A stretch of 63,500 bases of DNA, counting the filler, from Collodictyon triciliatum (Eukaryota), in assembly GCA_043381765.1 (NCBI GenBank). It is 10 parts of 10 records of this genome, joined end to end, with 100 filler letters (N's around TTAATTAATTAA, not from the genome) between each part and the next. Parts side by side here need not be neighbours in the genome. Positions count along the whole stretch, not along the records: positions 13,536 to 20,203 come from JBHJMP010004323.1; 9 more parts are not named here. One strand, written 5' to 3'. The position numbers and the translations under genes were made by a program. Positions 4,513 to 58,622 of this stretch are shown here, piece by piece (positions within the stretch are counted from its first letter, which is position 1; each line of letters begins with the position of its first letter). The notes under the pieces are model-generated. The model ran no database searches. It was given only the letters and a program-made list of their open reading frames with translations, and was not told the DNA's origin.

Positions 4513-5889
4513 TTACATTCCACTGGATGAGTCTTTTGAGAGGAACAACAAGTCGCTTTCCTTGCGTTTCTTGCTGGGCGACCCAGACAAAAAGCGATAC
4601 ATTGTTGTTTGTGTGGTATTATCGGAAGTGGCGCTTGACCGTCCCCTGGTTTCGGAGCCATGCGTAGCCGGCAATCGACTTTGCTTAACCAGAGTATGGA
4701 TACGCGTTTGTGGTTTTAGAAACATACACTCCTGCTTGCTCGGACTGTCTTTGGTGTGCGAAGTTCCAAGCTTGGATTCGATTTGTGCTGTCTCCTCTTG
4801 CTCCTTGGTTCTCGGTGCGACGGGCTGGGGCAGGATAAACGGACTATCTTTGGTGGGCGCTGGTTCTTGTGTTGCCTTCGCTTTAGAGTATCCTTTCGGA
4901 TAAGTAACGAAGACTGCCTTGAGGCCTCCTATGTTAACCATACTAACGTCATTCTGAATGGGTAGTTTAAGGGGATTTCTTTCGGGGTTTGGAGATGCGC
5001 TGCTCTTGGGTCTTGCGATGTGCGGGCTTGTCCGGTGTTGGCGGTGAAGGACTCGAGTGCGAGGATTCTGAAGAGGAACCGAGATTTCCTTCATATCACC
5101 GTCATCATCGTCGCTGTATGCGCGTATCTTCTGTGAGTCTTGCGGGCTCAGTTGTTGCCTGGCCTTGGCTTCCTTGTCTCCGTTGCTGCTTGTCTGCTTG
5201 GCAGGTGTATTCTTTTGCGGGGCTTTTACTTGTCGTTCGTTGTTCGTGGCTGGCGGATGCTCTTTGAGGATGCGCTTTGGACACTTTTTGCCCATGGCCG
5301 TAAACTTTGCAGAGGGCTGATTCTTGTGACAAAGAAGCTTCACCACGGCCGTGTCTGTGAAGAAGCCTTTTCCTTTTTTTATCTCTACGTGGGTCGGTCT
5401 GAACGGCTTCAGCTCCTCACGAATGAGTTGCGGCCACACGTCCAGCGGTAGTTGGTAGATCATCACCGAGGTCTCTGTTGGTTTACTTCTGCTGAAGCTG
5501 ATTGTAATATCGCTCAAACTTACTTGCCTCAGTTCCAGAAGCTTTCGGGCGTTCTCTGCAGTGCGGAAGGCAATCAGGCAAAGGCCTTAGATGTCTGGTA
5601 AGCGCAATTGGTTGGACCCTTCCCAAAGTTTGTTCGCTTTCAAGATGGAGGCGAGCGCATCTGTGAGCCTGCGGGCCTTGTTCTTGTTGTAAACGACTTG
5701 CTCGACCCCGTGAAAGAATCCTTTCCGCTCAGACAGACATGCAGGCGGCCTCCATGCACGGGTCTTCCTGGACTTACGTGAAACTTGGGGTTTTTCCGCG
5801 CCAGTGTTGGAACCAGAATAACTGGCTGCAACTTGCAAAGCCTTCGATGTGTCTCGGCCTACGTTTTCGTCGCGGCTCGTGTTTTCCAT
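4513..5889 (-). pseudogene. Intronless ~458-codon frame with one in-frame TAA (5587-5589); resembles ORF1 (gag-like, RRM-type) of an L1/Tx1 non-LTR retrotransposon
   Basis: ORFs 5587..6177 and 4513..5517 are in the same frame. The segment LIAFRTAENARKLLELRQVSLSDITISF...TSVMIYQLPLDVWPQLIREELKPF fits the LINE ORF1 pattern and is followed by a long disordered tail. No ORF2 is visible downstream. Confidence 0.4.
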
Positions 5890-6667: not shown

Positions 6668-6767
6668 NNNNNNNNNNNNNNNNNNNNNNNNNNNNNNNNN
6701 NNNNNNNNNNNTTAATTAATTAANNNNNNNNNNNNNNNNNNNNNNNNNNNNNNNNNNNNNNNNNNNN
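6668..6767. other. Artificial contig linker N-TTAATTAATTAA-N (nine in the window)
   Basis: Identical six-frame-stop 12-mer inside N runs at 6712, 13480, 20248, 27009, 33776, 40539, 45048, 51809 and 58567. Confidence 0.98.
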
Positions 6768-7026: not shown

Positions 7027-10000
7027 GAATATATGTTAAATAATCTGTCTCATCTTTGACCAATACTGCCTGTTGAAATATACAGAATGATAATTTTTCG
7101 CTGCGTAAACAATGTGATTCTCTGACAGAGGCCAATAAGAGACTAAAAGAAGAAGTTGATCATGTATACCGTTTCTTCAAAATTTAATATAATCAACATA
7201 TGGTCCATACCCAACAAAAATCATCGACATATTTTTTTCTGAAATTGAAGTGGATGCATGTTTCGAATAAAGGAGAACAAAAGAAGTAAATGCATGATTG
7301 TAGGTAAAAAACGAAAATGACCAATTGTTTAAATTCATGGGGTCTGAGGTTACTCATTCCGTAAAGTAACTTTTGAAATTATTCTCTCTTAAATTTCTTT
7401 CAACAGCAAAATAACAAAATGTAATGTAACAAAAGAATTTTATATTATTGATATTTCCAGTTTAACTAAAACACAAATGTGCCAAAATTTTCTCAATCGT
7501 GTGCAACTAGAACCGGCCATATAAGTGAGAAGCAAACAACGTCGAGTGAGCTCCAAAGTTTGAAAGAAACAAAAATTAGGCTGTCCTTTCAGGTTCGCTG
7601 GATTTAAAATCAAACACACAAATATTGGAAAACCCATGAAAAGGTCCGATGTATAGGATAATATTTTTTTTTTTAAAATAATTGATCATTTATCATGGAG
7701 ACGTCCAATACTCACATGGCACAAATATTGAGTATTCCTGTCCCGTCATTTACCTCTATTCTCATATCATACTTTTTATATATACGCTTGGATAATTAGA
7801 TAGACAAAATAAAAAAGAAGCTAACAGAAACGGAAAAAGAATGTGAGACCGTCAAAAGGCTGAACACGTTGCTGAACATTCAAAACCAGAGGCTGAAGGC
7901 ACATATTCCAGAGAATATGCATGGGGCTATATTCCTTGCTGATTACAATACAACTACAAATACCACAGCCACAGGGTATGTGAATACACAAGGGAGCACT
8001 CGATCACTCCCAGATAGAGGTGTAAGTCCTTCGCAGATTGCGCCCAAGAAAAAAAAAGAGCCAGAAAGGAAGTACTCTGGTTCAGAGTCTGAAATTCAAG
8101 TTGAACTTTCAGAAACACAAAGCATATTAAAGCATGAATTACAAGCCAAGGAAGCCTTGCTGGCGTTGAATGAAAGCCTAAAAAGAGAACTTGAAGATGC
8201 AAGAAAAATTAGTGACGAAAAGTAAATTTTTACTTATTTTCACCAAAAAATTTTTACTTTTTTTTTTTTGTGTTGTTTCAGTGTAATCTTTTCTCGGCAG
8301 AAGAAAAATGCGGTGCAAAACTAAAATTCGGAATGATAAATTAAATCAATTTCGAAATTACGCAATTTTTTTATGGATATTAATTAACGTTTGTTTGTTT
8401 GTTTGTTTGTTTGTTTGTTTGTTTGTTTGTTTGTTTGTTTGTTTGTTTGTTTGTTTGTTTGTTTGTTTGTTTGTTTGTTTGTTTCTTTTTTAAAAAAAGG
8501 AAAAAAGTCGAGGAAATTGCCACGACTCAACAGAAACGTATCTCTGAACTACTTGTCGCTGCCGAAGAAATGGACCAGATTGTATTGAATTCAAAAGCGA
8601 AAGTTCAAGAGCAAAATACCAGAATACAGGTAATTTACCTTCTCATGATGTAATGATTTGTAGACATATGAATTAAAAATATGTCTCTAACCATGCAATA
8701 CTGTAATAGAGTATCATTAACTCTTATATGAAGTTGAAATTGGGAAATATTTACATATTGTTTAGATTTTGGAGTCTTGTAACAAGAATCTGGAATCTGA
8801 AATTATTAAAAAAGAAGATGAAATACTGAAGCATTTGAATGATATCCAACAACTTCGACAACAAATGATGGACATTACTGACAAACACGAAGCAGCCTCC
8901 CAAAACTATCAGTCCGACAAACAAAGAATTCAATCAACTACTGAGAGACTTCAAAAGCAAATCGAGTTGTTCAGAGAAGAGACTCTCAAGTGGAAGGAAA
9001 AATATGAATCTGAAGAAAAGGTTATTCTCATACTGAAGCAGTTCAAAGAGACGTTGACGAGTCAAATCATGGAATGATTAATTTTTAATAATTTTTAACG
9101 ATTATCATTGCCTTTTCTCCTTCGAATAAAGGAAAAAAATCATTTCCTTTTCTCTATCAAATATGTTTACAATTTATTTAAAAATTTTCATACACGCAAT
9201 TAAAATATAGATATTGGTATTCACGTGATTTATATTATAAGGTGCGCGGATCATACCAAGTGCAGGTTAATCAGCTCCAGGAAGAGCTCATCATCAGAGG
9301 AATAAATATCCAACAGCTTAGCACTAGCATGGAGGACTATGATAAGTTATACGGAATTGTTAATCAACAAGTATCAAGACTTTTGAAATTGGCAGAGTCA
9401 TACAATGCAGAGGTTCAGACTAGCAATTTGCCAGGGTCACGGTCTCTCATCTTGCCAGAACGCTTCGAAAGCCGCTATCAATCTGATGTAGCACAATATT
9501 TTGAGATGATCGGATACACTTTCCAATCTTGTATCAAAGGTTTGTCATAAACTGGTTACTCTAGTGCAATTATTGTTTTTTCTCTTTAATAATCGAATGC
9601 AAGAAACGTGATTTTTCCCAAAATTAGAATTAAATTAATAACAACAATAAAATTAATAACAAAAATAACAAAAAAAAGCCACAAAGATAACAAAAATAAC
9701 AAAAATAACAAAAATAACAATAACAACAATAACAACAAGAACAACAAGAACAAGAACAACAAGAACAAGAACACCAAGAACAAGAACAACAAGAACAACA
9801 AGAACAACAATAAAGATATAAAAATAAAGATATAAAAATAAAGATATAAAAATAAAGATATAAAAATAAAGATATAAAAATAAAGATATAAAAATAAAGA
9901 TATAAAATAAAGATATAAAATAAAGATATAAAAAAAGATAATGAAAATAATAATAATAAAAATACCAATAATAACGCATAGAAATATAAACACATGCGCA

Positions 10001-11975
10001 AATTCTCTCTTACTTTTTTCTTCTTCTATTAGAATATCAGTCGATAAAATGTATATCTGAAGAGATGAAAGCAGACTTGGATGAAAAAGTGATAGTCATA
10101 AGTGAGGTCAATCAGGAAAACCTTAATCTACGTGGAGAACTACAACAGAATTCCATCGACCAGTTTCGGTCAGTAAAAGCAGTAAAAGGCACACATGCGC
10201 CGATTAATCCACCCGCACAAGGCTCACGAAAAGAACATACACCAGGGGAGTTGAATCGCTTACTTGACCAAACAAGAGCCGAGCTCCTCCGTTCTCAAAG
10301 AATTATCGAATCGCAACAGACTACCGAGGACAATCTAAAACGAGAAGCAAGCAACCTCAGAAAAGACGTTTCGATGCGGGAAGAGGATGTAAATAAGCTC
10401 CAAAATCAGGTGCGCAATCTTGGGCACCAGCTGCAACAGTTAGACGAAAGCCATCGTCAAAACAAGCGAGAGCTGGCTTCCAAGCAAACTGCTTTGATGC
10501 AATCGCAAGAAGATGTGCGCAATCTCCACCAGAAGCTCGAGAAACAGCGACTTGTTGAAGCTGACTTGCGAGCGAAGCTTGAAAAATTAGTGGCTTTGGT
10601 CTCCGCCGAACGCTCCAGTTTGCATCAAATGGTCGGAAGCTTGGTTAATCAAGGCGTACCATCAAATGTCTCGGCAATATCAGTTGTGGAGGAAGGCGAT
10701 GGAGCGGCACAGTCTCGTTTGACTCTCGAGCAGATAATGGAGGGCGGGCCAAGAGGCTTGAAAGGGGCAAAAGAAGTTGCAGAAACTCAGTTGGCACGGG
10801 AAAGGAATCCGTTTATTCCACCCGACTTGATTCTATCTGGCGAAAATGAAGCACAAAACGGAACAGACAGCAACGCGGCAAACAGTGCGCATGACGGACA
10901 GCGCCGAAACAGCAGGTCGAGACGGTCTTTGAATCGTGTTGTTGAGAAAGCCACCACCCAGCTCGTGCTTGAAAGCATGGAGCACGCAGCTGCAAAGTCT
11001 GAGATATCATTATTACAGACCGAGTTGGAGGAGTTTGCGCAGGAGCTTCAAAATATGGATGCACAGTCAGGCTCGTTTTCTTCGTCGGTTCAGTCGCCCA
11101 TGATGTATTTGAATCAGTCGCAGAGCGGCATGGGCAACTCTACACTTGGAGAGAAATCCCTGCATAGTTCTGTGCCCGTAGTGACTTTGGATTTGACCCG
11201 CGATGAAGCAGGTCATTTTGGACATGAGGAGAGTCTGACACCAGCACATCCGCAATACGCACCTGTGATGAAAGAGTTCAAGAATAAGATGGCTTTGATA
11301 ATCGAGCATCTTGTTGAGACGTCAGCCTTGCGTTCCTTCCGTGATGAAATCATCCGCTGGAATGCAAAATACCAGAGGCAGCTGCATGACCTGATTCTTT
11401 ACGTAGAGTCCTTGGAAAGTAATGTAAGTTGTATCTCTGTTTGTGTGTACGAATCCCTTTTGGCTTTCTTCATTTCTTATATCCGCACCATCCAGAGATT
11501 CTCATAGCCAGAGTTTCGTCTTTTGCTCTCCAAGAATGTTTATCTTGTTTTGTACTTGTAACGTAGTGTGCGGAATACAAAGAAATGCTGCTGCAGGAAA
11601 GCAAAAAATCCAGCCAACTTGAATCAGAGCTGCATGTATCTTGCGCTTCTTTTTCATTCTAAACATGCACATGTCATGGGATATTCACTGAGCGCAAAGT
11701 ATATGTTTGTTTCGATTCACACACACACACATTCACGCGTTTGCATTCTGCAATAGAAAGAAGCAGACAAGCGGCGGCAAGTAGAGGCTGCCAAAAGCCT
11801 CTCGGACGCAGAACTCAGACTCATGCGCATGCAAATGACAAACACAACTACGCAGGCGCATACAACGCAGAGCAGAGCATCGTCTCGGGCGAGTTCGCCA
11901 CTCAGCCGCAAACTATCCTTCGATTCGCTGTCTTCTAATCCCGGACGACGGTTCTCAACACGAGACAACAACTGA
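7027..11975 (+). CDS. Long coiled-coil protein of unknown family, multi-exon, 5'-partial
   Basis: Successive heptad-rich E/Q/K/L exons (7800-8222, 8500-8629, 8766-9020, 9242-9539, 10033-11422, 11757-11975) separated by AT-rich introns; ends ...RRFSTRDNN*. Confidence 0.65.
7247..7296 (+). mobile_element. 22-nt micro-retroinsertion (7261-7282) with 14-bp TSD (2 mismatches)
   Basis: gaagtggatgcatg [tttcgaataaaggagaacaaaa] gaagtaaatgcatg. Confidence 0.65.
9104..9154 (+). mobile_element. 19-nt micro-retroinsertion (9120-9138) with 16-bp TSD (1 mismatch), in an intron
   Basis: atcattgccttttctc [cttcgaataaaggaaaaaa] atcatttccttttctc. Confidence 0.75.
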
Positions 11976-13412: not shown

Positions 13413-13535
13413 TTGCTTGCCTTGGTTGAGGGCGGNNNNNNNNNNNNNNNNNNNNNNNNNNNNNNNNNNNNNNNNNNNNTTAATTAATTAANNNNNNNNN
13501 NNNNNNNNNNNNNNNNNNNNNNNNNNNNNNNNNNN

Positions 13536-16500
13536 TTGCTGAATATGATTCAGGAGAAAAACAAGTAATACTTGATTTTTTATGTCTATTTTAATGATTA
13601 AATCAGAAATCAAAATACTTTGAATCGAAGAAAAGAAAAATTGATAATAAATTGTGTATTATAGGGACGAGAAGTTTGTCTTCCTCATCGATGCCATCAA
13701 CCAAATACACCCGTCGCAAGGAACGCCAGCTCCGCATCTGCTGACCTGGTTGCCCAAAGAAACGCCACCTAATGTTGCCATGGTTGTGTCGACCATTCAT
13801 ACCCATGAATCTTGCGCGGTATTCATCATTTAATATTATTTTTTGGACATGTTTATTTTCTGCATAAAATTGATTTGAGTGGAAGGTTAATTAATCTATA
13901 TGCCACAAGTCTGCCAAGCAAAGTGGACTGGAGCCGATTCCTGTTGCCAAGTTGACCGAGGGCGAAATTAAGGATGGTGTCGAATCATTCCTCATTCGCT
14001 ATGACAAGACCCTGAACGAAAAGCAAGTTGGAATGATTCTGGCCGACATTGAAGATACAGGTCAGACATTTTTAATAGGAGTATATATTTTTATTAATTT
14101 TTTTTAAGGAATGATTAATTTATTCTTATCTGATATTTCCAAAGCCAACATCATCACCATCCTGCACAAAATTGAAAGGAAGAATAAAAAAAATATTCTT
14201 ATGTGATATTTTTTATAGGCCATCCGCTCTATCTACGCATTATTCTGGATGAGGTCAGGGTCTTTGGAGTTTATGAGAAGCTCGATGAAGAACTGAAAAC
14301 TCTGCTTTCGACGGATGGTGTTATTGAGCTTTACACTCTCATTATTAAACGCTGGCAACTGAAGTTTGACAGGAAAGGTGAGTTTTGATTTCATATTTCA
14401 AAAAAAAAAAAGGTGCAATATTATAATTGCCACTTTTATTGATTGATTCTTTTTTATTACAGTTTCCTCATCTGATGGAAAAGAGACAATGAAGGTCGAG
14501 TATGTGTCCCTCTCGATGAAGGTTCTCTTTGTCTCCCGCATCGGCCTGAGTGAAGGTGACTTGGACAAGTACATGAAAGATGCGATTGGCACAGAATTCG
14601 AGCTTGCTGAATGGTTTTCTTAATCTTGAATTTTAATATAATTAATATGTTTACTCCTTTCTTTTCTTATTTTAACTTATCTTTTATCCATTCAAACAGG
14701 AAATCCTTCTTCTTTACCCTCATCGAGTCGCTTTTCGTCCGCAATGGAAGGTTAGTGTTATTTCTCAGTCTTTTTTGTTCGTTAATCGGCGCTTTCGGTA
14801 TAATTTTATTTTGGATATAAAGCTAACTATTGTTTTCATAGATACATGTACTTCCACCAGCTGCTGTTGGAGACCACCAAAAAGGTCTACTTTTCCGAAA
14901 AGAAAGAGATGGAAAAAAGCCACGAAAAATACGGAAAATGGCTGTTTGGCCAGTATTCTGAGACTGCCGACGCAGATGAGGAGCTTGCTGCTGAGATTTG
15001 CTACCAACTTCTGAAGGGCAGTTCGTTTGAATTGCTTGTCGAATACATGAAGCAAAAACATGTAATTTTTTTTATTTTTTATTTACTCAATTACTTCAGT
15101 CATAATGAAACAATTTTCTCTGATTAAATTTTATATAATAGGTTATCAGTATCATGCTCAGTGGTCGCTATCGCTACGAATTCTTTGCATGCTGGAGAGC
15201 AATCAACGCAAGTGGAGTGGCAAACTACAAAGATGCTTATGGAAGCTTGGCCAAGGTAACTTGCTATTTAATTTTAATTTTTTGAAGGTTACTACTCACG
15301 AATTAAATTATCAATCATGATTTATCTATTAATTTTTATTTTTTTTTTATTAATTTTCAGTCTTTGGATAATGTGGGAGACCTGCTGGTTGGATTTTTCT
15401 TGGAGTCTTTTGAGAATTCGTTCTTGTTGTCTGTTCTGAATGTGCGTCTTGGAAAGCATCAGACAGAAGGTATGCAATTTATTGTCTTTTTGATGAATTT
15501 ATGTCATGAATATGAGTTTATATGGAGATATTCAATAATTTATCAATTTACAGATGCGAAGGCTGCTGATTACCTGAATCTTGGTCGTGTCTACAAGAAC
15601 CTTCAAAAGTAAAAAAAAAAAACATTATTGATTAAAATTAATACATGACATGACATGATGATTAAATCTATGATAATTTCTAAAATATAAAACTAAACAG
15701 CTGGGCTGAGTCCATGGTCTACTACAAGAGATGCCTCAATTCAGTTGAGAAAAATACAGACAATTCCCTGCGCATCGCCACCATTCACGAAGAAATGGGA
15801 ATCATCTACCAGCAACAGGACAAGTAAGGATCGTTTTCAATTGTAAATTAAATTATGAATAATGTTTCAAAAAGGAATTATTCTGATTTTCTTATTAAAC
15901 AGAATCGATGAAGCTCTTGATGAATACAAGAAATCACTGGAACTGAGAGTCAAACAACTGGGCGAGAACGACTTGCAAGTGGCCCAATCGCATGACCGCT
16001 TCGGAGACATCTACGCGAAACAGTCAAAGTAATATTTGAATCATCTATATTCGTTTTTTTTTTGCCTTTATTTTGTAAAAATATATTTATGTTGATCAAT
16101 TTTTTATGATAGGAATGAGCAGGCTCTGGTTGAATACACAAAGGCCATGGAAATCCGCCAAAAGAGAGTTGGAAACGAGCATCCTCTTGTCGCAACATCG
16201 TACCAGAACTATGGCCATGTCTCCTTGGATGGGAAAAAGTAGCACATTCATTCATTCATTAAAGACAGTTTTAAATATACTTATAATTTGAGATATTAAT
16301 ATGATTGAATCATCAAGGTATGAAGAATCTATTGAAAACTTCGAAAAGGCGAAATCAATCCTTGAAAAATCGCTGGGAGCTAAGCATGCATCTGTTGCCT
16401 CGACAATCCAGTTTATTGCGAGTGTTCATCTTGCCAGTGGAAAGTTTGGATTTCTAAACTACAGATATTTTCATAAAACAATAATTATTCAATTTGCAAA

Positions 16501-19500
16501 ATATATTTGGCATCATATCTTTCATTTGTATGGACTCTATTTGGGGTTAAGATTATGCATAATACAATACTAACTAAATAAATATCAAATAACTATCTTA
16601 TATAGGAAAACTGAGGCCTTGTCCTCATTAAAGCAATCGCTGGATATTTTCATGTCTGCCCTGGGTGAAAATCATCCCAATGTTGTGGCCTGCTATGAGA
16701 TGATTGGAGACATCAGCCATGATTTGAAGGAGTATCTCCATTTATTAATTATTATTACATATTTAATTGAAAAGAATAATTTATTTACTCTTATTATCTT
16801 AGCTTTAAGGGTGCTCTGGAGGCGTATATAAAGACGCAGGATATTCGCGTGAGAACATTGGGCGAAAGACATGCTGATTATGCTACTTGCCTGGAGAATG
16901 TTGGCCGAACAAACTTTGAGCTTCAAAGGTTTTTTTGTCTTTATATTAAAAGAAATTAAATATTTTATTAAAACCAATGAAAAAATACTTCAATAATAAC
17001 TAATGCACATACATCTAGTTCTGCTCAATGTGTTGATTGCTTCCAGAAGGCAGCTGCGTTCAGAAAGGAGACAAAGACTGCCATATCATTGAAAGATGGC
17101 TCACAAATTGACAACATTATCCGCCTCATGAAGGACAAGAAGGAGCATGAAGCCGTCATTCATCTTTACAAAACGCTGATTCATCTATTCAGCAAGCTTT
17201 ACTCCATAGATTATCTTGGAATATGGAACAGCTGCGAAGAAATCGACAAGATTTACAAGGAACTGAAGCAGCACAAGGAAGCAATGGCATTCTGGGCTGA
17301 GATGAGAGACAGATTTGCTGATAAACTTGGATGGATTCACCCCAGAACATTGAATTCGTGCGAATACTTGTCCGTCCATTCAAAAGAAATCGGAAACAAC
17401 AAAGAGCCTGTCGAGTTTACAAGAGTCAAGGAATTTATCAGTGAAACTCTTGATGATGCAAAACTGGATGAGATATGGAATCATGAGCTAATCATCGCAT
17501 TGTTATTCAGAATTGTCTACATGTCAAAGACTGATGAGAGCAAATCAAAGGCTGCATCTGATGCAATCACAGTTTTGAATTTCATGAATGTTTCGTTCGG
17601 TGGAATGGATTTATCAAACATCAAAATTCCGCATGCAAATCTCAGTAATTCAATCCTTGATGGTGCAAACCTCACTGGTGCCAACTTGGATGATGCTGAC
17701 TTCACGAATTCGATGCTTGGTGATTGTGTTTTTGATAATGCAAATATGAGTAATGCGAAATTCGGAATTCCTCATGATAAACTAGAAGGACATGCTGATT
17801 ATGTCTATAGTGTTTGCAGTATTCAAGGACCGAATGGTGAAAATTGGTTGGCTTCTGGGAGTTATGATAATACAATACGTATTTGGGATGTAGCCACAGG
17901 AAACCAAATCAAAACATTGGAAGGACATACAGAATGGGTCACTAGTGTTTGCAGCATTCAAGGACCGAATGGTGAAAAGTGGTTGGCTTCTGGGAGTTAT
18001 GATAATACAATACGTATTTGGGATGCAGCCACAGGAAGCCAAATTAAAACATTATATGGTCATACAAGGCCTGTCACTAGTGTTTGCAGTATTCAAGGAC
18101 CGAATAGTGAGAATTGGTTGGCTTCTGGAAGTAGTGATGCAACAATACGTATATGGGATGTAGCCACAGGAAGTCAAATCAATACATTAAAAGGTCATAC
18201 AAGTGGTGTCAGTAGTGTTTGCAGTATTCAAGGACCGAATGGTGAAAATTGGTTGGCTTCTGGAAGTAAAGATAACACAATACGCATTCGGGATGTAGCC
18301 ACAGGAAACCAAATCAATACATTAAAAGGTCATACAAGTGGTGTCAATAGTGTTTGCAGCATTCAAGGACCGAATGGTGAAAATTGGTTGGCTTCTGGGA
18401 GTTATGATAATACAATACGTATTTGGGATGTAGCCACAGGAAACCAAATCAAAACATTAAAAGGCCATGAAGGATACATTAAAAGTGTTTGCAGTATTCA
18501 AGGACCAAATGGTGAAAAGTGGTTGGCCTCTGGAAGTAATGATTATACAATACGTATTTGGGATATAGCCACAGGAAACCAAATCAAATCATTAGAAGGT
18601 CATACAAATGCTGTCAATAGTGTTTGCAGCATTCAAGGACCAAATGGTGAAAAGTGGTTGGCTTCTGGAAGTAATGATAAAACAATACGTATTTGGGATG
18701 TAACCACAGGAAACCAAATCAAAACATTAAAAGGTCATACAAGTCATGTCATGAGTGTTTGCAGTGTTCAAGGGCCGAATGGTGAAAATTGGCTGGCTTC
18801 AGGAAGTAGTGATTATATAATACGTATCTGGGATGTAGCCACAGGAAACCAAATCAAAACATTGGAAGGACATACAGAATCTGTCATGAGTGTTTGCAGT
18901 ATTCAAGGACCGAATGGTGAAAATTGGCTGGCTTCTGGAAGTAGTGATAATACAATACGTGTTTGGGATATAGCCACAGGAAACCAAACACACAGCCTGC
19001 AAAAATCAGAAGTGACCTACACCCAAGGAAAATACCTCGTCAAGAAAGAAAAGCCTGACGAAGTCATCGCAGTATTCAACAGGACAAGTGATGCGATGAA
19101 CATGATTGACACCAACAGAATCCAAGATGCAAGGACAGTCCAGATTATCGGCCCAAGAAAGCTGCAAGGTGGAAACATCCAAATCAGAAATGTCACAGGA
19201 TTGAGTCAATTTAACAAGACCATTCTACTTTCAATCGGTGCTGCTTCCTTTGATGCGGACTTTGCTGCGTATTGTGAGCAGGGTAAGTTCACGAAGTTCC
19301 AGGCTCAGATGATGGCTGAGTGCTGTGAGAACGGGTGGGGTGTTGAGAAAGACACTGAGAAGGCCTATTATTGGAGATATGTCGCCTTTCCAAAATTATC
19401 ATTAGACTTTGATGGATTGAAACAACTTGCACAACAAGGCTCAAAAGATGCATTCAGTATTTTGAAAGAATTTGCTGAAATGAAGGATAGATGGGAAGAA

Positions 19501-19812
19501 TACAAATATCCACAAGCTGTTTCTGTTGTTGCTGAATGTTATGACAATGGATGGAGTGTTGAGAAGGACACCGTGAAAGCAGCTGACTGGCTTGGAAAAG
19601 CTGAAAACTTTGAAAAATTGAAGCAACTAGCACAACAAGGCTCAAAAGATGCATTCAATGTTTTGAAAGAAATGGCTGAAATGAAGGATAGATGGGAAGA
19701 ATACAAATATCCACAAGCTGTTTCTGTTGTTGCTGAATGCTATGAGAATGGATGGGGTGTTGAGAAGGACACCGAGAAAGCAGCTGAGTGGAGACAGAAA
19801 GCCTCAGCTTAA
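13536..19812 (+). CDS. STAND/NLR-like protein, 5'-partial: NACHT C-terminal half (NPHP3/TTC41-type) + TPR repeats + pentapeptide repeats + 9 WD40 + SEL1-like repeats
   Basis: Walker B region FVFLIDAINQI...LLTWLPKETPPNVAMVVST (13665-13818). GHPLYLRIILDEVRVFGVYEKLDE (14219-14290). Many short TPR exons (e.g. ESIENFEKAKSILEKSLGAKHASVAST, LGENHPNVVACYEMIG). Then one 2.8 kb terminal exon, 17019-19812. Confidence 0.85.
14121..14210 (+). mobile_element. 56-nt family-2 retroinsertion (14138-14193) with 17-bp TSD (1 mismatch), in an intron
   Basis: tattcttatctgatatt [...ctgcacaaaattgaaaggaagaataaaaaaaa] tattcttatgtgatatt. Confidence 0.75.
17782..18996 (+). repeat. Nine tandem 135-bp (45-aa) WD40 units with high nucleotide identity
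   Basis: Consensus GHTxxVxSVCSIQGPNGE(N/K)WLASGSxDxTIRIWDVATGNQIKTLx, counted 9 times in the translation. Confidence 0.95.
19417..19809 (+). repeat. Tandem 201-bp duplication encoding SEL1-like repeats
   Basis: LKQLAQQGSKDAF...YPQAVSVVAECY(D/E)NGW(S/G)VEKDT(V/E)KAA(D/E)W occurs twice (units start 19417 and 19618), plus an upstream diverged copy AECCENGWGVEKDTEKAYYW. Confidence 0.9.
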
Positions 19813-20876
19813 CAAGGTAAGTAGTATAGTAAATGCATATAAATATATGTTCGTTAACTATATTCATTTTAGATGGATAGATTCTCTGGGTTTTTTTCAA
19901 GCAGACCTCCGCTTTTTTCCCACGAGGACGCTCCATGAAAACAGAATAAAACCATAAAAATGATAACAAAGCTGATCGATCTCTGTTGCAAGCTTTCCCT
20001 TTTCCTTTTTTCTTTTTTCTTTTTTCTCTTTTCTTTTCTTTTCTCTTTTTCTATTCTTTTTTCTTTTTTCTCTTTTCTTTTCTTTTCTCTTTTTCTATTC
20101 TTTTTTCTTTTTTCTTTTTTCTTTTTTCTTTTTTCTTTTTTTTCTTTTTTTTCTTTTTTTTCCTTTTTCTTTCCTTTTTCTTTCCTTTTTCTTTCTTTTT
20201 CTTNNNNNNNNNNNNNNNNNNNNNNNNNNNNNNNNNNNNNNNNNNNNTTAATTAATTAANNNNNNNNNNNNNNNNNNNNNNNNNNNNNNNNNNNNNNNNN
20301 NNNTTTTATCTTTTTATCTTTTTATCTTTTTATCTTTTTATCTTTTTATCTTTTTATCTTTTTATCTTTTTATCTTTTTATCTTTTTATCTTTTTATCTT
20401 TTGATTTTTGTTTTTGATTTTTGTTTTTTGTTTTTGATTTTTGTTTTTTGTTTTTTGTTTTTTGTTTTTGTTCTCTAAAGATATTTGTAAATGTGTCCAG
20501 AGTGAAACTCCAGATCTGTTTATGAAACCTGGATAAACTATATCATCAACTCTGGTAAAGTCTGATCATATAACATCCCAGAGAGACTGTAATCGGATTG
20601 AGCACTGCACAACATCAGTCCAACAGAATGCCGGGTAAAAGTTGGAGTGTATTCCGCATACACTTTATTAGATTGGCTACCTCCTAGTATTACAGATGAT
20701 GGATTCTCTTTCCGAATGACCCCTCCCCCTCCCCCACTTTTTTTTATTTTTTTATTCTTACTATTATCATTAGTGAGGTAACCTCCCATATACAGGTGCA
20801 TATACAAAATCTGACTATCAATTCATTTTATATTTTTGTCTCTTTTTTTTTTAAAAAAAAAAAACGACAACTACAG

Positions 20877-26964: not shown

Positions 26965-28168
26965 NNNNNNNNNNNNNNNNNNNNNNNNNNNNNNNNNNNN
27001 NNNNNNNNTTAATTAATTAANNNNNNNNNNNNNNNNNNNNNNNNNNNNNNNNNNNNNNNNNNNNCTTCTTCGTGAGAAAAATCTCAAGAAAGCCCAGCAA
27101 TAAACGCACTCTGTCACCACAATAAATATACAAAATTAATATTGCTGCATATTTCCTTCAACAGAACGTTTTTTATCACTAAAATGTAGTAGCTTCCTCC
27201 CGCTTTTATTGTTGGGTCCAGTGTAAGGACATCCTTAATGCAGCGAGCTCAAACAATAGGAAACATTTGAACCAAATACTTCCTTATTGTTGATGCGAAG
27301 CAACCAAAGCACTAATCGGGTACATGGAGTTGGGTCAATTGCCGCGTCCTACTTTGCCTCAGGGTCGTCTCCTTTTCTTAAAAAAAAACAAATAAATCAT
27401 TAATATGCACTTTTAATTCGCTTATTATCTATCTTCCCTGTGATGCCACTCAATTGCAACGGCCCGTACAAGCTTTTCTAATTAATCCGAAAAAGAAAGT
27501 TGACGAGGGCTTTATACAAAATCATGTAAGGACAAAGTAACGCCCATTTCATTCCGTCGCTTCAAAATGATGTCTTCAAAGGTAACTGTGACACTCGGTC
27601 ATGCCGTTTTCTGTTTCCTGCTCTTGTTCATTCTTTCTTGTTTATTTTCCGGGTCGAGGGTGAATATAACTGAACTGTTCCGCGCTATTTGTGTGTCGGA
27701 ATTGCAAAAGCCTACGTCCGAAGACCGTGAGATAATCATCTCTGGAACAGGCCAACCAGAGAATACTTTTTTTTTTCCTTTTTTTTTCTTCTTTATGTCC
27801 AGCTTTAACTTGGCAACAGAATATGCGCTCAGGGAAGGGATTTTCGCTCTTTGGGTAGACTGACCAGTTATTCTTTGTCTGGATGCACTGCATAGAATAT
27901 TCAAAAAGAAATCGACAGACTTCGAAGTTGAATGCATTTAATGAGTGAAAACAGTCCCCAATGAGTGGGAAGGCGTGCTTTTGAGGGGAAAATGTGTAAA
28001 ATTGGGATTTCATCGTCTAATTTGCACTTTTCTTTTGTTCTATTTCTTTACCTCGTTCTTTCCGGAAATGTAATTTTTGTTTGACAACTAGATGTTTTTT
28101 TTTATTTTTTGAAAGGCTTGTGTTTATTATTGTTTGTTTATTTATTTATTTATTTATTATTATTATTA

Positions 28169-33602: not shown

Positions 33603-33859
33603 GTTGATGTTTGTTTGTTTTTTATCTCCTTTTCTCTTTTCTCTCTTCTCTCTTCTCTCTTCTCTCTTCTCTCTTCTCTCTTCTCTCTTCTCTCTTCTCT
33701 CTTCTCTCTTCTCTCTTCTCTCTTCTCTCTTNNNNNNNNNNNNNNNNNNNNNNNNNNNNNNNNNNNNNNNNNNNNTTAATTAATTAANNNNNNNNNNNNN
33801 NNNNNNNNNNNNNNNNNNNNNNNNNNNNNNNTTTTTTTCCATATATTTTTGTTTTTCCC

Positions 33860-34020: not shown

Positions 34021-37000
34021 ATGCCTAAGCCCGACCAGAAAAAGAGGCCGGTGGCCGAAGTGAATGAAGGAAAAAATCCAGCCGATTCAAAACCTGCAAC
34101 ACTGCCGCCGAAACAAGGGGCCCAAGGAGAAAAGGCTTTTTTTCTTCTTCATAGCTTCATTTTGAATTTCTCATTATTTTTGTATTTGAGATATCCCTGG
34201 TTCGCTGATAGCTTGATTCAACTGAAGATGATTAAGTATGTTCATATCTTTAGACCTCTGAGAAGGCAGTCTCTCCCAAGGACAAGGAAGCAACACACGA
34301 AATTATTCAATACGAATGGAAAGCAGGAAGATACTTGGATGAAAGCGACGAAGGTCTTATTATATCTTGAGCTCATTTTCTGCACAGATCGCTTTGGAAG
34401 AGTGAAATCTCCACATGAAACATTCAATCTTACAGTCTACATACTCGCTTGATTACATATCGCTTCCTTGAAATATGTAGCTATAAGATGACAAACTGTA
34501 TCTTGGGGTTCCTTCCATTTTTAATGTCTTAATTGATATCCCCATCTAGACGAAGCGGATAATACTGAAGAAGCTACAGAATATACCAGCGAACAAGATG
34601 TATTATTTCGTGATCGATATATCTTAGCCTAAAATATATTTTCTGTAAACTCTATTCTTGCGTTTAAATATTATCGTTTTTTGTATTAAGGATTTTGGAG
34701 AAAGTGAAGAAAATGAGGATAATGAGGGAAGTGAAGATCAAGACAATGATGAAGACGACGACGAAGTCGATAATGACGATGATGACGATGATGACGAAGA
34801 CGAAGAAGATGATGAAGGAGAAGAAGGCGAAGATGACAAAGAAGGCGAAGGCGATGAAGATGAAGATGAAGAAGAAGAGGGCGATGAAGATGAAGATGAA
34901 GATAGTGATGGGGACAGTGACAAAAATGAGTTTTTGAGAAGCAAGCCATCAAATTCTCACCCAAAGTCTGCATCTCCACCCCAATTCAAAAAAGCTGTGG
35001 TTGATGAGAGTGACTCTTCCGAGGAAGAGGTCTATCTTCTCTTAAATTATGCAAAGCATACATTAATCACTTATCGAGATATCTTAAAGAAAATAAGATT
35101 TCTAAAGCCTGCTCTTTTTTCCCCACAGGTCGAAAATCGTGTTGGTGATATTCCAATGTGGTGGTACGATGAATATAACCACATTGGTTACAACGTCGAC
35201 GGACAGAAGATTGCGCGCAAAACAAACAAAATGGACAAACTTGACGAATTTATGCAGCAACAAGAAAAAGACAGCTTGTATTCATTTTTGCTATCATAAG
35301 CACCCTCACATATAGAAACATGGATATGCAATGAAGTTACTGAAAAATTGATAAAAATTTAAAGGCGAAACGTATATGATGAGGTGAATGACAAGGTCGT
35401 GCGATTGACCGATGAGGAAATGGAAATGATTCGTCGGATTCAAAAAGGTCAGGTCGCAGACCCCAAGTTTGATCCTTATGAGGTAATTGTTATTCCTTTC
35501 TCATGAATAAAGCATCGCCAATATTTCCTTCATTTTCTTTATTTTGAAGGGGTGTCCTACTTTATATAATAAATGCCATTCTCTAAAACTTCATCGAATA
35601 TTTAATAATGGCGTTCAATATCTCAATATGTTTATTTCTCATTCTTTTGAACATTCTACTACATCGCCAGGACATCGGCCTTATATACGATCGATCAGAC
35701 AGCATTCATCCCTTGACTAGTGGCTATGAACCCAAACGCCGTTTCATTCCATCAAAATGGGAAGCTAAGGCGGTATGCTTTCTTGTTTCCCTGTTTAGTA
35801 TTATCAATTCCGAGACATATGAATGTTTTCTCTCAATTTTATTACACTGCCCCGAATATGCAGATTGTGAGGCTTGTTCGATCTATTCGAAATGGCCATA
35901 TCAAACCCAAGAAAGAACAAAAAGACAAGAAACCCAAATTCTATGATGTAATTGTTCCATTAAATCCCCCTCCCCCCTCCCATATTCACAGTTTCCCCCA
36001 TTTATTCGATTTAAAGTCCTACATATCCCAGTTTAAACACCATGAATTGAAATTGTGGCATATATGTCATTATACTTCTTGTATTAAATCTGACAATATT
36101 GTCTATATCTTATAATAATATCTATGTATTTTTGAATTGATATTCCTATTCAACGCGAATTTTTTTTGTTCTTCTTGTTGTGAATCACTCATTGAAGGAT
36201 ATGTAGATAACACAATTATATACCATTAGATATGGAAGGACTCTGACTCAAATGCGAAGGGACGTGGAAGTGACATGCCTGCACCTAAAGTCAAGTAAAT
36301 ATTCTAGGATTCCTTTGAATATCACACATGCATATCTACAAAAAGAAGGTGTATTTTTTTTTTCGGCTTTTGAGGAATTTTCATTGTATACCAACCAAAC
36401 ACTAGACCCCCAGGACACAATGAATCATACAACCCACCAGAAGAGTACTTACCAACGCCCCAAGAAGCTGAAGCCTGGCTCAAAGCACATCCAGAGGACC
36501 GCGAAACCAACTTTTTACCCAAAAGGCAAGGCTATATATATAATCATAAAAAATGGAACATGTTAGCATATACATACGCTAGGGACCAGTTAACTCGGGG
36601 ACAATTTTTTTCTAAAGATTACAATTCATTATATACATTAATTAGCTGATAAATATTTCAAAATTTAGATATGGCGCCCTTCGATCTGTCCCAGCTTATA
36701 GCGACTTTGTAAAGGAACGTTTTGAGAGGTGCCTCGATCTTTACCTCTGCCCTCGTGCTGTTCAAAAGAAGGTGGCGAGCCAAATCTACAATGCCAAATG
36801 TCTACATCAATTCAATCACATTTTCTCATTTGTATGGAAACTTTTTATCATACTCTTTCATTTTTGATACCAAGAAATAACTTTAGTTTTCATTCCCAAT
36901 CGCAAACTCAGGCAACAATCGACCCTGAATCGCTCATTCCCAAGCTTCCATCTCCATCAGAATTGAAGCCTTTCCCATCTGAAATTGTCCTTGAATTCAC

Positions 37001-40230: not shown

Positions 40231-42295
40231 CTGGTATTTAGGGCGAAGGGATAAGGATTAGCTAGCAAGCAGGAAGCAGCTATCTTTGGGGCTATGCGGG
40301 AGGTTGGCATCTTTGTGGAAGGAAAGAGAAGTGAAAGAGGTGTTTTGTAGGATGTTCAAATAGAACCAAAAATAATAGGAATAGGAATAGGAATAGGAAT
40401 AGGAATAGGAATAGGAATAGGAATAGGAATAGGAATAGGAATAGGAATAGGAATAGGAATAGGAATAGGAATAGGAATAGGAATAGGAATAGGANNNNNN
40501 NNNNNNNNNNNNNNNNNNNNNNNNNNNNNNNNNNNNNNTTAATTAATTAANNNNNNNNNNNNNNNNNNNNNNNNNNNNNNNNNNNNNNNNNNNNTCTGAA
40601 GGGATGAGGAATTGAAATGCCCCCCCCCCCCCCCCCCCCCCCTTCCCCGAAGCATGCGTCATCGAGAAGATGGTCAAAAGTCATCAAATGAAATAAACGT
40701 ATCAAGCATTTGCATTATTGATGCTGTATGTGAATGGATTTGAGCCATTAGAACAAAGACAACCAAGAAGAAGAAAAACACCCCTGTTTAACCACCACTC
40801 CAGTTTGAATCTAGGATAGGGCACCGCGAAAGAGAAGAATCGGGAATCATAACGCACAGAAAATGAAAGGAATGAAAAGTTTGAGGAGACCCGTATAGGC
40901 CTACAACCAAGAGGAAAATAAAGAAGTGAGGCAAGCAGCCCATCCCCCCACCGAATTGTGACATCTTTCAAAAGAGAAAGCAATAAAGAAAAAGGGGAGA
41001 GGCAGAGAGGAAGGAAGGAAGGAGGGAAAATAAATAGGATGCCTTACAATGACTTAAGGGAAGGTTTAAAATGAATGAGAAAGGGCGAGAATGAAAAACA
41101 ATAATAACAGAAGTATGAGGGGGGAAAAAAGTATGATGTCTTTTATTTCGAATAAGAATCGAGAAGAATAATAAGCGATTCAAGAAACAGGATGTAAATA
41201 TTATGATATATGTTGTGCTACTGATAAAGTAAAATGAAAATAGAATAAAAGAATAAAAAAATATATATATAAAAAAAAAGGGAGGGGGAAAAGGGGAAAA
41301 TGAAGACCAGGTGAACTTCAGTGTAGAAGAGAGGAGGCCGCCAAAGGATCGGGGCGCGGGTGTGCAACCCTGACCCACACAGAATGCGACCAAACGGACA
41401 AACGAACTTTGGGCGTTTTCCTCTCCTGCAACGACACATCCGACACCGAAACAGCCAACTGAAATTGGACGAAAAAGAAAGAAAAAAAGTCCTGTAGAAA
41501 TTGTCATTCTCGAGGCAAACAAGGCTGAAGAAATAACCTACAAGCGAAAGCGGAAGAAGACAGCAACGTTCAATTCTTTATGTGGAATGACAATTTCGGC
41601 CACAACCAACACCACAAACTCGGCCTGCTAAATATATCTCTTTGCCTGCTTTTGTACAGAGCACTGACATAAATCAAATGTGGAATAAATAGCACTAAAA
41701 TGTTAATCCTGGCAAGGTTCGTACAGCACCGCATTGGTGAAGAAAAAATAGTACAAGGTATGTCAGTTACATTGTACAGGTATAATTGATTTTCTTCCTT
41801 TGAAGCCGTGAATTGCGGGTGGGTTATTTATATCAATAATAAGTGACTAGAAGGGTGGCGAGTGTTTGTTTCTGTTTGCTGCAGCCCAGTTGGAATCTTC
41901 CATCTGCCTGCTCTTGACTTGCTAATCTTTGGAATGAGCGGTTGACCTTTCACTTTTTTTTTTTTTACACCGGATCTTATTGTGTTTTTTTATTTTATTT
42001 TTTTTCCATTTATTTATTGAAATGGCCACCTACATTTCAATCAGTGAGCAAAAGCTAACAAAGATGCCTATTCCACGATTCAAATAAAACAAAAAGATTA
42101 AATATACATACACACATAAAACTCGTTTTTGATTCGATGAACATACGAAATGGTATTAGTAAATACGAGTAAATGAATGATGCTGTGGCAGTGGGTCATG
42201 AGTTGCCTATGAGAAGCAAAGCATTAATCGGGATGACACAAGTACTTACATGAAACTCGGGCCTATTTTCCTTTTGCCCAGTGGGTAGAAAAGGC

Positions 42296-43193: not shown

Positions 43194-44176
43194 TTACTCT
43201 TGGGCGGGCTGGACGGCAGGGGCGGCCGGCTTGGCGACGGGGACGGCCTTCTTGATGGTCAGGGTGCGGCCTCCAACGACGACCTCCTGCAGCTTGTCGT
43301 AGGCGGCATCGCGGGCGGCGGCAGTCTCAAACTCGACAAAGCCGAAGCCCTTGCTGCGTCCGCGGGGGCGGGTGGCCACACGGCCGGAGACCGCGCTGAA
43401 CTGCTGGAAGATGCTGNNNNNNNNNNNNNNNNNNNNNNNNNNNNNNNNNNNNNNNNNNNNNNNNNNNNNNNNNNNNNNNNNNNNNNNNNNNNNNNNNNNN
43501 NNNNNNNNNNNNNNNNNNNNNNNNNNNNNNNNNNNNNNNNNNNNNNNNNNNNNNNNNNNNNNNNNNNNNNNNNNNNNNNNNNNNNNNNNNNNNNNNNNNN
43601 NNNNNNNNNNNNNNNNNNNNNNNNNNNNNNNNNNNNNNNNNNNNNNNNNNNNNNNNNNNNNNNNNNNNNNNNNNNNNNNNNNNNNNNNNNNNNNNNNNNN
43701 NNNNNNNNNNNNNNNNNNNNNNNNNNNNNNNNNNNNNNNNTGGGGCCGGCGGCGCGGCGCGGGCGGCGGGGGCGGTTGCGGTAGGGCGAGGCGGAGCGGG
43801 AGCGGGAGCGGGAGTGGGAGCGGGGCTTCCTCTCCTCGCGGTCGGCCTGGGGCCTGCGGGGGCGGGCGGGCTGCAGGCGCAGGGCGCGGCCGTCCAGCTC
43901 CTTGTCGTTGAAGTCCTTGAGGGCCTGCTGGGCGCTGGCCTCGTCCGCAAAGGTCACGAAGCCGTAGCCCAGTGCGCGGCGGCCGCGGGCGGCAACAGTC
44001 GCATCCGTGGGCTGCAGCGCTCCAAAGAACTCGCGCAGGCCCTCCTTGGTCGTCTTGAACGGCAGGTTGCCCACAAAGACGCGGTTCGAGGGCGCGGCGG
44101 GGGCGGCGGCGGCGGCGGCGGCGGCAGGGGCAGGGGCGGCGGGGGCGGCGGCGGCAGCTGCGTCGGTGGTGGCCAT
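43194..44176 (-). CDS. Two-RRM RNA-binding protein with RS-rich linker (internal N gap), very GC-rich
   Basis: RRM1: RVFVGNLPF...LGYGFVTF...ELDGRALRL. Linker RSHSRSRSRSASP. RRM2: RSKGFGFVEF...VVGGRTLTIKKA. Confidence 0.85.
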
Positions 44177-45103
44177 GGGGGCGGGCAGGCGGGCGAAGAG
44201 ACTGGGGCTGGGGTGGGCTTAGTACTCTCGCGGGCTGGACACTATGCGCACTCGGCTTGCTTTGTTTTGCTTCGCGCGTGGTTTTCTTTTCTTTTGGTTT
44301 GTTATGTTGGTTCTTTGATCGGTTGCTTTCGTCGCTCTGGTTGACTGGGTTCTCTGCTTGCGGCTCTGCTTCTTGGCCCGGCTGCGGTCGCTGCGTGATC
44401 GCGCCTGGGCTTTGTGCTGATTCATCTCTGGTGCCGTGGCCACAGGGGCGGGCGTGTGCGTTTGTGCGGATTGATTGGGGGCGCGAGTGTGCTTGGCTTT
44501 GGGCGGGTGCGTTTGTGACTGGGAAATAAGGGGGGAGGCGCGGTTTGCGTACTTTCTCTGTGCTTCGGTTGTCAATGTCTCGGAAATCGCGGCTGGGCGG
44601 GTCGTGTGCGGAGGGGCGACCAGTTTGCGGATTTTTTTTTTCTTATTCATTGAATTTGTGGTCAAATGGTTCGGGTCGCTCGCCGCATGGGTGCTGTATT
44701 CACTGAATTGGATGAAATAAATATATGTGATGTGTAATTATATATCATAACACATAATACATACTATCTTGATCAATAAGCATCAATTTAAAGTATTTTG
44801 AAAAATTGTGGAATATATTCCGCTTCTGGATTAACGCTCAGCCTTTTTTTTCCGGGTTGCGTTTTACATAAACCACCTGGGCTACATTTCTTCACTATCT
44901 CCCTCACGTTTCTTAGCCTTCTCACAAAAAAACAAAAAACAAAAAACAAAAAACAAAAAACAAAAAACAAAAAACAAAAAACAAAAAACAAAAAACAAAA
45001 AACNNNNNNNNNNNNNNNNNNNNNNNNNNNNNNNNNNNNNNNNNNNNTTAATTAATTAANNNNNNNNNNNNNNNNNNNNNNNNNNNNNNNNNNNNNNNNN
45101 NNN

Positions 45104-50581: not shown

Positions 50582-50670
50582 TACAATAACAATACTTTTT
50601 TTTGTGTAAAAAACGCAGCTTAAAAACTATTCAAAATCATAGATTAACTAAACAAGCATTTGCACCCACA

Positions 50671-51764: not shown

Positions 51765-51864
51765 NNNNNNNNNNNNNNNNNNNNNNNNNNNNNNNNNNNN
51801 NNNNNNNNTTAATTAATTAANNNNNNNNNNNNNNNNNNNNNNNNNNNNNNNNNNNNNNNNNNNN

Positions 51865-58522: not shown

Positions 58523-58622
58523 NNNNNNNNNNNNNNNNNNNNNNNNNNNNNNNNNNNNNNNNNNNNTTAATTAATTAANNNNNNNNNNNNNNNNNNNNNN
58601 NNNNNNNNNNNNNNNNNNNNNN

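Follow-up and report, generated by a model that had tools for sequence, protein, structure and literature searches.

The 63,500-nt stretch of Collodictyon triciliatum DNA analysed here (assembly GCA_043381765.1; referred to as the window) carries on its plus strand, at 17782–18996, an array of nine WD40 units of 135 bp, or 45 codons, each. The array is attributed, with a probability of roughly 0.6, to the sensor propeller of a STAND protein (signal transduction ATPase with numerous domains) resembling NOD-like receptors (NLRs), in which recombination homogenises the units while the binding face diversifies. The visible layout of the gene consists of the C-terminal part of a predicted STAND nucleoside triphosphatase (NTPase), seven TPR units, a linker, a pentapeptide segment, the nine WD40 units, a spacer and Sel1 repeats. 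Judging by its closest homologs, the host gene would come from a freshwater protist related to Diphylleia.

Unit variation, selection and mosaicism

Unit i of the array starts at position 17782 + 135(i − 1) and codon k of a unit at the unit start + 3(k − 1), numbered from the L of the L-x-G-H motif. Tandem Repeats Finder reported one array (17802–18988, period 135, 8.8 copies, 87% matches, score 1707), and a 39-nt unit core occurred nine times at three mismatches or fewer, as compared to zero occurrences in 100 shuffles. When the cut is made at 17782, all nine units share the reading frame of a single open frame of 943 codons (16981–19812), and Pfam WD40 matched the array in nine stretches (E = 1.7e-90, 294 bits). 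Identity between units ranges from 78.5 to 93.3% for DNA (mean 85.5%) and from 68.9 to 91.1% for protein (mean 78.9%). At least 9 of the 135 bases differ between any two units, and 22 of the 45 positions are invariant in protein. An earlier interpretation from the DNA alone (the sequence-only reading) had described nine near-identical 135-bp repeats forming a WD40 array, with variation concentrated after GH and in GSxDx. The nine in-frame WD40 units hold, albeit "near-identical" is somewhat generous given the DNA mean. The translations of units 1–9 gave exactly the strings listed there, i.e. ADYVY, TEWVT, TRPVT, TSGVS, TSGVN, EGYIK, TNAVN, TSHVM and TESVM after GH, and YDN, YDN, SDA, KDN, YDN, NDY, NDK, SDY and SDN in the second variable string; the concentration of variation at these sites was likewise recovered.

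The hypervariable codons of the unit are 5, 6, 7, 9, 28 and 30, with codon 37 moderately variable. Codons 7, 6, 9, 28 and 30 have the highest non-synonymous diversity; next in rank, clearly lower, are 2, 44, 5 and 37. The summed diversity of codons 7, 9, 28 and 30, which are equivalent to selected codons in the fungal receptor HET-E, was reached by 1 of 100,000 random sets of four codons, and the concentration of variation in the unit is well beyond chance. Paoletti et al. (PMC1805685) describe strong positive selection at codons 7, 9, 25 and 27 of HET-E/NWD, with codon 8 conserved between 7 and 9 and codon 26 between 25 and 27, and site these codons on the propeller top, where they occupy the loop joining strand d to strand a as well as the b–c turn. 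Ament-Velasquez et al. (PMC12222747) use positions 10, 11, 12, 14, 30, 32 and 39, which refer to another register. By our own register conversion, allowing for an A–B loop that is three residues longer in the window unit, the published HET-E/HET-D positions map to window codons 5, 6, 7, 9, 28, 30 and 37. All six variable window codons fall in this mapped set, which was fixed before looking.

The Nei–Gojobori ratio of non-synonymous to synonymous rates (dN/dS) is 1.93 at the six variable codons and 0.23 at the 39 scaffold codons. For the a-priori codons 7, 9, 28 and 30 it is 1.77, compared to 0.31 for the other 41. A minimum-change count, for which the codon states of each position were linked by a minimum spanning tree, assumes no single tree for the units. 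At the variable codons it comprised 28 non-synonymous changes on 14.8 sites, and over all 45 codons 22.5 synonymous changes on 28.4 sites. The resulting ratio is 2.4 at the variable codons (one-sided binomial p = 0.0014) and 0.28 on the scaffold. These selection figures are indicative, not final. Positive selection at the codons of the D–A loop and the B–C turn, a trait of the HNWD family of fungal receptors, is found in the window array.

An AlphaFold2 model of 17746–19020, built without an alignment, shows a mean predicted local distance difference test score of 84.8, a predicted template modelling score of 0.71 and 36 strands, four per unit, i.e. nine blades. The modelled strands span unit positions 8–15 (A), 21–27 (B), 31–36 (C) and 42 to position 2 of the next unit (D). 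This predicts the D–A loop for codons 5–7, the second position of strand A for codon 9 and the B–C turn for codons 28 and 30; the D–A loop and the B–C turn are the elements set on the top face by Paoletti et al. (PMC1805685). The A–B loop of the model consists of the unit's extra residues (IQGPNGENW). The top Foldseek match is 2YMU, a highly repetitive cyanobacterial propeller (E = 2e-30), and the other best structure matches are eight-bladed designed propellers (TM 0.78–0.79 on target). Taken together, the strand count and the best structure matches suggest a single nine-bladed ring.

The units are mosaic. Among 13 informative biallelic sites, 47 of the 78 pairs show all four gametes, and when sites in the variable codons are left out a hand count gave all four combinations for 16 of 28 pairs. 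Units 1 and 5 have no differences in the 3′ 69 nt and 11 in the 5′ 66 nt, and between units 4 and 5 the half-units differ by 2 and 7 bases. No correlation was found between the distance matrices of the half-units (r = 0.07, a value equalled or exceeded in 3878 of 10,000 permutations), and the turn YDN is paired with three different D–A loops in units 1, 2 and 5. In a GENECONV-like test the longest agreeing run covered 33 of 53 polymorphic sites (units 1 and 5), a length attained by 1 of 5000 permuted site orders. Moreover, neighbouring units are hardly closer to each other than distant ones (18.4 versus 20.0 differences). This pattern supports recombination or conversion, with parts of units exchanged. 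The sequence-only reading had pointed to repeat shuffling in Podospora and had called for per-codon dN/dS values and for a mapping of the variable sites on a predicted propeller; the mosaic units, the elevated ratios at the variable codons and the predicted positions in the D–A loop, the start of strand A and the B–C turn all agree with it. Its claim of rapid diversification does not receive such support (see below).

Host gene and homologs in Diphylleia

A word-index search of proteins of 518–1651 residues returned only pentapeptide proteins for the region before the array (84 matches), and only generic WD40 arrays for the array itself (at most 52% identical among the 120 matches listed). Three Diphylleia rotans transcripts surfaced on searching longer proteins. 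In EukProt (EP00002) they correspond to P032243/P032246 (2619 residues, here P0210), P040976 (2520 residues, P0218) and P021718 (1219 residues, P0325). P0210 is colinear with the window gene model from residue 735 to its end, including the conserved spacer and Sel1 tail. Identity is 46% over 674 columns from the NTPase to the TPR units and 45% for the linker-to-array part (667 columns); P0325 reaches 40%. The transcripts share with the window gene the colinear order of NTPase, TPR, linker, pentapeptide, 45-residue WD40, spacer and Sel1, and by this sequence comparison they are true homologs. A HMMER search with the 198-residue linker against 1.84 billion representatives gave 152 matches at E ≤ 0.001, 12 at E ≤ 1e-10 and 3 at E ≤ 1e-30, the last three all being Diphylleia rotans. 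Judged from these matches, the helical linker is particular to the family.

The first 1100 residues of P0210, which include the part that is cut off in the window gene, hold a CH domain (E = 5.8e-11), DUF4062 (E = 7.4e-11, residues 379–470) and the NTPase (about 620–845), in which the motif GIGKS is followed by FIFLVD. No HET match was found in a Pfam scan of this region. The DUF4062 of P0210 may correspond to the TeTIR effector. The name DUF4062 does not occur in the available part of a preprint (10.64898/2026.09.21.753143) on NACHT proteins of the TEP1/NWD/NPHP3 type with a TeTIR effector.

A strict 45-residue period and a GPNGE.W loop also characterise the Diphylleia arrays, so that this type of unit is an old family trait. 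Unit numbers across the family are 9, about 7, 19 and about 23. The internal likeness of the Diphylleia units is only 41% for the 19 units of P0210 (54% for its units 9–16) and 42% for the seven units of P0325, with variation spread over many positions, as compared to 79% in the window array. Homogenisation is thus particular to the window gene, and what is special to its array is the uniform scaffold. The closest identity between a window unit and a Diphylleia unit is at most 67%, and the lowest among the window's own units 69%. A maximum-likelihood tree of 36 units grouped the nine window units with the unit of a further protein, P0406, and the first unit of P0210 (support 96/95); the tree is based on 45 columns and most of its forks are open. 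In P0218, residues 2098–2182 comprise two adjacent units that by eye are clearly closer to each other than to the rest of the array. Local homogenisation may therefore occur in Diphylleia too.

P0406 is a 132-residue protein from a 512-bp European Nucleotide Archive contig and is 74% identical to the window protein over 125 residues. Its extent takes in the linker end, the pentapeptide part and unit 1, and it places the QGPNGENW loop in at least one other sequence. A hand count against the window protein gave 65 of 87 identical residues outside the unit and 28 of 38 inside. Within the unit, P0406 differs at all six variable positions, which make up six of the ten differences in 38 residues (hypergeometric p = 7.6e-5). 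The comparison fits faster change at the predicted binding-face positions between related genes.

The array-bearing contig occupies 13536–20203 of the window (JBHJMP010004323.1), and all features of the gene lie on its plus strand. The C-terminal portion of the predicted STAND (NACHT-like) NTPase, together with the helical domains that follow it, extends over 13536–15608 in at least nine short exons and begins just before a Walker B-like stretch, FVFLID, at the contig start. As the contig edge (13536) cuts the 5′ end of the gene, the P-loop and the N-terminal effector, about 740 codons, are absent from the contig. Many short open pieces are seen upstream of the long exon. A tblastn search with residues 745–1117 of P0210 gave exon-sized matches at 13666–13818, 13922–14065, 14218–14379, 14504–14620, 14701–14775, 14840–15070 and 15142–15594. 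The first six of these seven are 51–77% identical. The search thus recovers contig exons, three of them partly missed by the gene model, and the exon borders given here are predictions of a hand-refined splice model, derived from the TPR register and homology to P0210. The N-terminal residues of the gene model gave no significant match in a comparison with 204 WD40 proteins.

The TPR_12-type array of seven 42-residue units spans 15554–16928, as assigned from Pfam, matches to P0210 and the splice model; Pfam TPR_12 was found on 5 of 15 frame pieces (E = 1e-6 to 1e-4). Its phase-2 exons are located at 15701–15823 (123 nt) and, with 126 nt each, at 15903–16028, 16113–16238, 16318–16443, 16606–16731 and 16803–16928. 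Each holds one unit, with GT–AG borders and GTT donors at 16444 and 16929. The TPR units gave no Tandem Repeats Finder hit and are not homogenised. In the splice model the last exon, of 2.8 kb, opens with the end of the last TPR unit and the helical linker (together 17019–17577). Because the splice into 17019 carries the TPR register into the long exon, the TPR and WD40 parts are assigned to one gene. A bacterial origin was considered and rejected, as the array frame runs on from the spliced 126-nt TPR exons. The description of a eukaryotic, NLR-like gene closest to the Diphylleia rotans transcripts is supported by sequence, in line with the protist NLR-like receptor of the sequence-only reading.

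The pentapeptide-repeat segment (17578–17763) is located directly 5′ of the propeller. Pfam Pentapeptide scored above its cut-off at frame residues 210–243 (E = 6.2e-11), and Pentapeptide_4 matched residues 200–261. Downstream of the array, the spacer domain (18997–19299) aligns to about residues 2490–2580 of P0210 and 1085–1180 of P0325, with no Pfam family matched. Three Sel1-like repeats (19300–19812; Pfam Sel1 E = 1.2e-17, 64 bits) close the gene with a stop codon at 19810–19812. C-terminal repeats that form superstructures, an NLR-like trait, are thus present in the form of TPR_12, Pentapeptide, WD40 and Sel1. The Sel1 tail also holds a 201-bp tandem duplication (19416–19791, 1.9 copies, 93% matches), the second young internal duplication of the gene.

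Known systems and rival explanations

HET-E, HET-D as well as HET-R of Podospora anserina resemble the window gene in that a STAND NTPase (predicted in the window gene) is followed by a WD40 array with a homogenised scaffold. In HET-E/HET-D, as in the window, hypervariable pairs flank a conserved V in the D–A loop and a conserved D in the B–C turn, non-synonymous exceeds synonymous change, and the units are mosaic (PMC1805685, PMC12222747). Conversely, the window unit has 45 residues instead of the 42 of HNWD, with the longer A–B loop noted above, and its mean protein identity of 79% compares to over 80–100% in HNWD, so that the definition by 42 residues and more than 80% identity does not apply. 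The NTPase is NPHP3/TEP1-like, unlike that of HNWD, and the head of the closest homolog carries CH and DUF4062, with no HET seen. The window protein moreover adds TPR, pentapeptide and Sel1 modules, has nine units and stems from a protist. It is known from one sequence, in contrast to the allelic, repeat-number and functional data available for HNWD. On these sequence features the window gene is not a member of the HNWD family. The HNWD/HET-E pattern invoked in the sequence-only reading therefore stands with respect to the selected sites, which coincide, but not as family membership.

Further comparisons place the array in a wider context. Hu et al. 2017 (PMC5587647) catalogued 305 "Highly-Repetitive" WD40 proteins with an internal identity above 0.7, half of them bacterial and one third fungal, with none from animals or plants. 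Protists contribute high-internal-identity WD40 proteins, and hotspot sites stay diverse (PMC5587647). The window array exceeds the 0.7 cut-off, with a mean of 0.79 that was calculated as simple pairwise identity and not by WDSP. The class of Hu et al. is one of sequence statistics and makes no functional claim, and the window case adds gene context, mosaicism and homologs. In fungal NLRs, high internal conservation (HiC, threshold 85% identity) of WD40, TPR and ANK repeats is enriched and accompanies positive selection and length polymorphism (PMC4986451); it also occurs in bacterial NLRs (preprint 10.1101/2020.01.06.895854). Bacterial and mucoromycete NACHT–pentapeptide–WD40 proteins (P0137 Nostochopsis; P0100, P0263 Mortierella) share the order of linker, pentapeptide and WD40, and the cyanobacterial P0137 is colinear with the window protein across the linker-to-array part (32% identity, 713 columns). 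Bacterial NACHT anti-phage proteins are counted with this group. Precomputed Pfam lists of such proteins show PF05729, PF00805 and WD40. Their characteristic pentapeptide segment between the NTPase-associated helical region and the WD40 part is found in the window gene as well, but they have no TPR before the pentapeptide, no Sel1 tail, 42-residue units and 30–50% identity. The Diphylleia homologs differ from the window gene in their diverged blades, in unit number (19, about 23 and 7) and in having one Sel1-like unit instead of three. In the brown alga Ectocarpus, NB-ARC-TPR and leucine-rich-repeat ROCO candidates have one repeat per exon under diversifying selection (Zambounis et al. 2012, PMC3341825). 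Like these receptors, the window gene resides in a host that is neither animal, plant nor fungus and has one repeat per exon (its 126-nt TPR exons); unlike in Ectocarpus, the diversifying part is the intron-less WD40 array, and the per-exon TPR units are not homogenised. Among the papers listed in literature searches, none dealt with NLRs in Diphylleia or Collodictyon, and none on NLRs, WD40 and NACHT contained both "protist" and "high internal conservation".

In the mechanism we propose, unequal crossing-over or gene conversion between the 135-bp units would homogenise the scaffold and reshuffle half-units, and selection would favour new residues on the predicted binding face, a scheme that follows Podospora HET-E/HET-D. 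If other STAND proteins are a guide, the NTPase would be set free once a ligand binds the propeller and, after oligomerising, would switch on the N-terminal effector. The closest homolog suggests CH and DUF4062 as effector candidate, possibly TIR-like. A defence or non-self role would be the most likely use of the window gene.

A system of this kind is known already from fungal and bacterial receptors. New features are the lineage, a relative of Diphylleia within CRuMs, a chassis of NPHP3/TEP1-like type, a unit of 45 residues and a sensor of four modules, along with the contrast offered by non-homogenised homologs. CRuMs form a deep branch next to Amorphea. As a tentative and rather doubtful generalisation, diphyllatean protists might run HET-E-type receptor diversification on an NPHP3/TEP1-like NACHT chassis with a TPR–pentapeptide–WD40–Sel1 sensor, whose head is possibly TIR-like. 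If so, recombination between units would time and again homogenise and reshuffle the propeller of individual family members, with its binding face under pressure to change. Scaffold homogenisation with diversification of the face would then be a general, perhaps ancestral, route of STAND immune receptors to new specificities and not a fungal peculiarity, and the family would offer a "frozen" (Diphylleia) and an "active" state (window gene) for comparison. A uniform scaffold with changing contact residues is the best understood fungal way to new recognition specificities. As similar arrays are catalogued in bacteria and, statistically, in protists, the window gene provides a worked example from a little-studied supergroup, and its non-homogenised homologs are a natural contrast for when and why homogenisation starts. 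The case speaks for a wide distribution of NLR-like sensing with fast-evolving propellers among microbial eukaryotes; an immune function is not thereby shown.

The receptor reading has to be weighed against a number of observations, collected in this and the following two paragraphs, that count against it. The loop motif was found in no protein among those of 518–4715 residues, and as a degenerate DNA pattern it gave no match in JGI metagenome contigs. The array query yielded 12 pattern matches in the same contigs and seven in prokaryote genomes, with no relative among either set, and one genome each of 185,579 prokaryote species held no QGPNGE[NK]W loop. The 79% protein identity falls short of the fungal HiC threshold of 85% (PMC4986451). 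In the unit tree, the window units do not strictly form one clade, since a long branch leading to P0210's first unit falls within them. Unit 4 (18187–18321) reads IRIRD around codon 35 and the other eight units IRIWD or IRVWD; with the WD motif's conserved W thus lost, unit 4 may have a weakened blade, or the change may be tolerated or reflect an error in the sequence. The run test is affected as well. Differences cluster in two short stretches, which makes the figure of 1 in 5000 too optimistic, and in a divergence-weighted version of the test the run was reached in 176 of 5000 permutations. The selection counts draw on only six codons, two of them chosen after the data had been seen.

An unlikely but serious alternative is the young tandem amplification of one unit of an older array in a protein with an ordinary cellular role, for example flagellar or signalling as in animal NPHP3/TEP1 relatives, with structurally free top-face residues that drifted, or adapted once to a fixed partner. 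Animal members of the NPHP3/TEP1-like NTPase group have non-immune roles. Besides NACHT, the NTPase also resembles NPHP3_N and nSTAND1, and in P0210 the scores of all three remain just under the Pfam cut-offs (NACHT 25.4 versus 26.7 bits, nSTAND1 24.5 versus 27.1, NPHP3_N 23.1 versus 24.8); in the window, Pfam NACHT on 13651–13830 reached 16 bits against the cut-off of 26.7 (E = 0.011). The synonymous divergence (dS) of the scaffold among units is about 0.26, so that homogenisation is not very recent and the units are not rapidly homogenised; the rapid diversification expected in the sequence-only reading is not evident from it. Positions that are variable in the window are also variable in the diverged arrays of Diphylleia (entropy ranks 6, 2, 11, 9, 4 and 21 of 45 in P0210, Spearman 0.59 overall); part of the variation pattern is thus common to WD40 arrays. 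Hu et al. explain "Highly-Repetitive" WD40 proteins by young repeat duplication with diverse hotspots (PMC5587647). The Diphylleia isoforms P0210 and P0473 differ at 10 residues with none in the 855-residue WD region, a comparison that fits such an amplification while being uninformative on array polymorphism. Against this scenario, non-synonymous change at the variable codons runs at about 2.4 times the synonymous rate, not at or below it, and mosaic units are not predicted by duplication and point mutation. Several diverged Diphylleia paralogs with differing repeat numbers are also unlike a conserved housekeeping orthologue.

Old, blade-specific contact residues under purifying selection, with conversion homogenising only the scaffold, would imply variable sites that are conserved between strains and not fast-evolving. 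The proportion of synonymous differences is higher in the variable codons (0.33–0.37) than on the scaffold (0.22), as if the former escaped conversion. Conversely, P0406 differs from unit 1 at all six variable positions despite 74% overall identity, and the combination of the YDN turn with three D–A loops points to reshuffling and not to fixed blades; this explanation is regarded as improbable. Finally, the array could have been collapsed, or assembled as a chimera of several loci, in which case the order and number of units and their mosaic pattern would be unreal. The evidence base is one assembled array whose units were compared with one another, and unit order and number rest on an unverified assembly and may be wrong. 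Arrays of this kind are reportedly not recovered from Illumina assemblies, and assembly of high-identity WD40 arrays from short reads is reported to go wrong (Ament-Velasquez et al., PMC12222747); the window is composed of contigs of about 6.7 kb that mostly end in simple repeats. Still, the frame stays open through nine units into a conserved C-terminal domain, the differences between any two units make the array much easier to assemble than those of Podospora, and the flanks are colinear with the Diphylleia homologs. An artefact is accordingly considered very improbable, and a recombining receptor propeller with a diversifying face remains the preferred explanation.

Composition of the window

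In the window, contigs that measure about 6.7 kb, or 4.5 kb in one case, follow one another and are joined by linkers of the form N44-TTAATTAATTAA-N44, which are located at 6668–6767, 13436–13535, 20204–20303, 26965–27064, 33732–33831, 40495–40594, 45004–45103, 51765–51864 and 58523–58622. Simple repeats are present at most contig ends. As the window consists of joined contigs, its other parts are not genomic neighbours of the array gene. GC content per kb ranges from 0.10 to 0.52 across the pieces. Of 12 sequencing runs listed, none contained more than 0.17 of the sampled sequence words, and such small k-mer shares carry no information on habitat or expression. The long frames at 4513–5583, 9990–11504 and 45056–46693 gave no Pfam match. 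On other contigs of the window, an integrase-core (rve) frame was found at 49127–50623 on the minus strand (E = 3.3e-6), an RRM-containing frame at 43194–44639 on the minus strand of a piece with 50% GC, and a frame with a BOP1 N-terminal domain at 34649–35296 on the plus strand.

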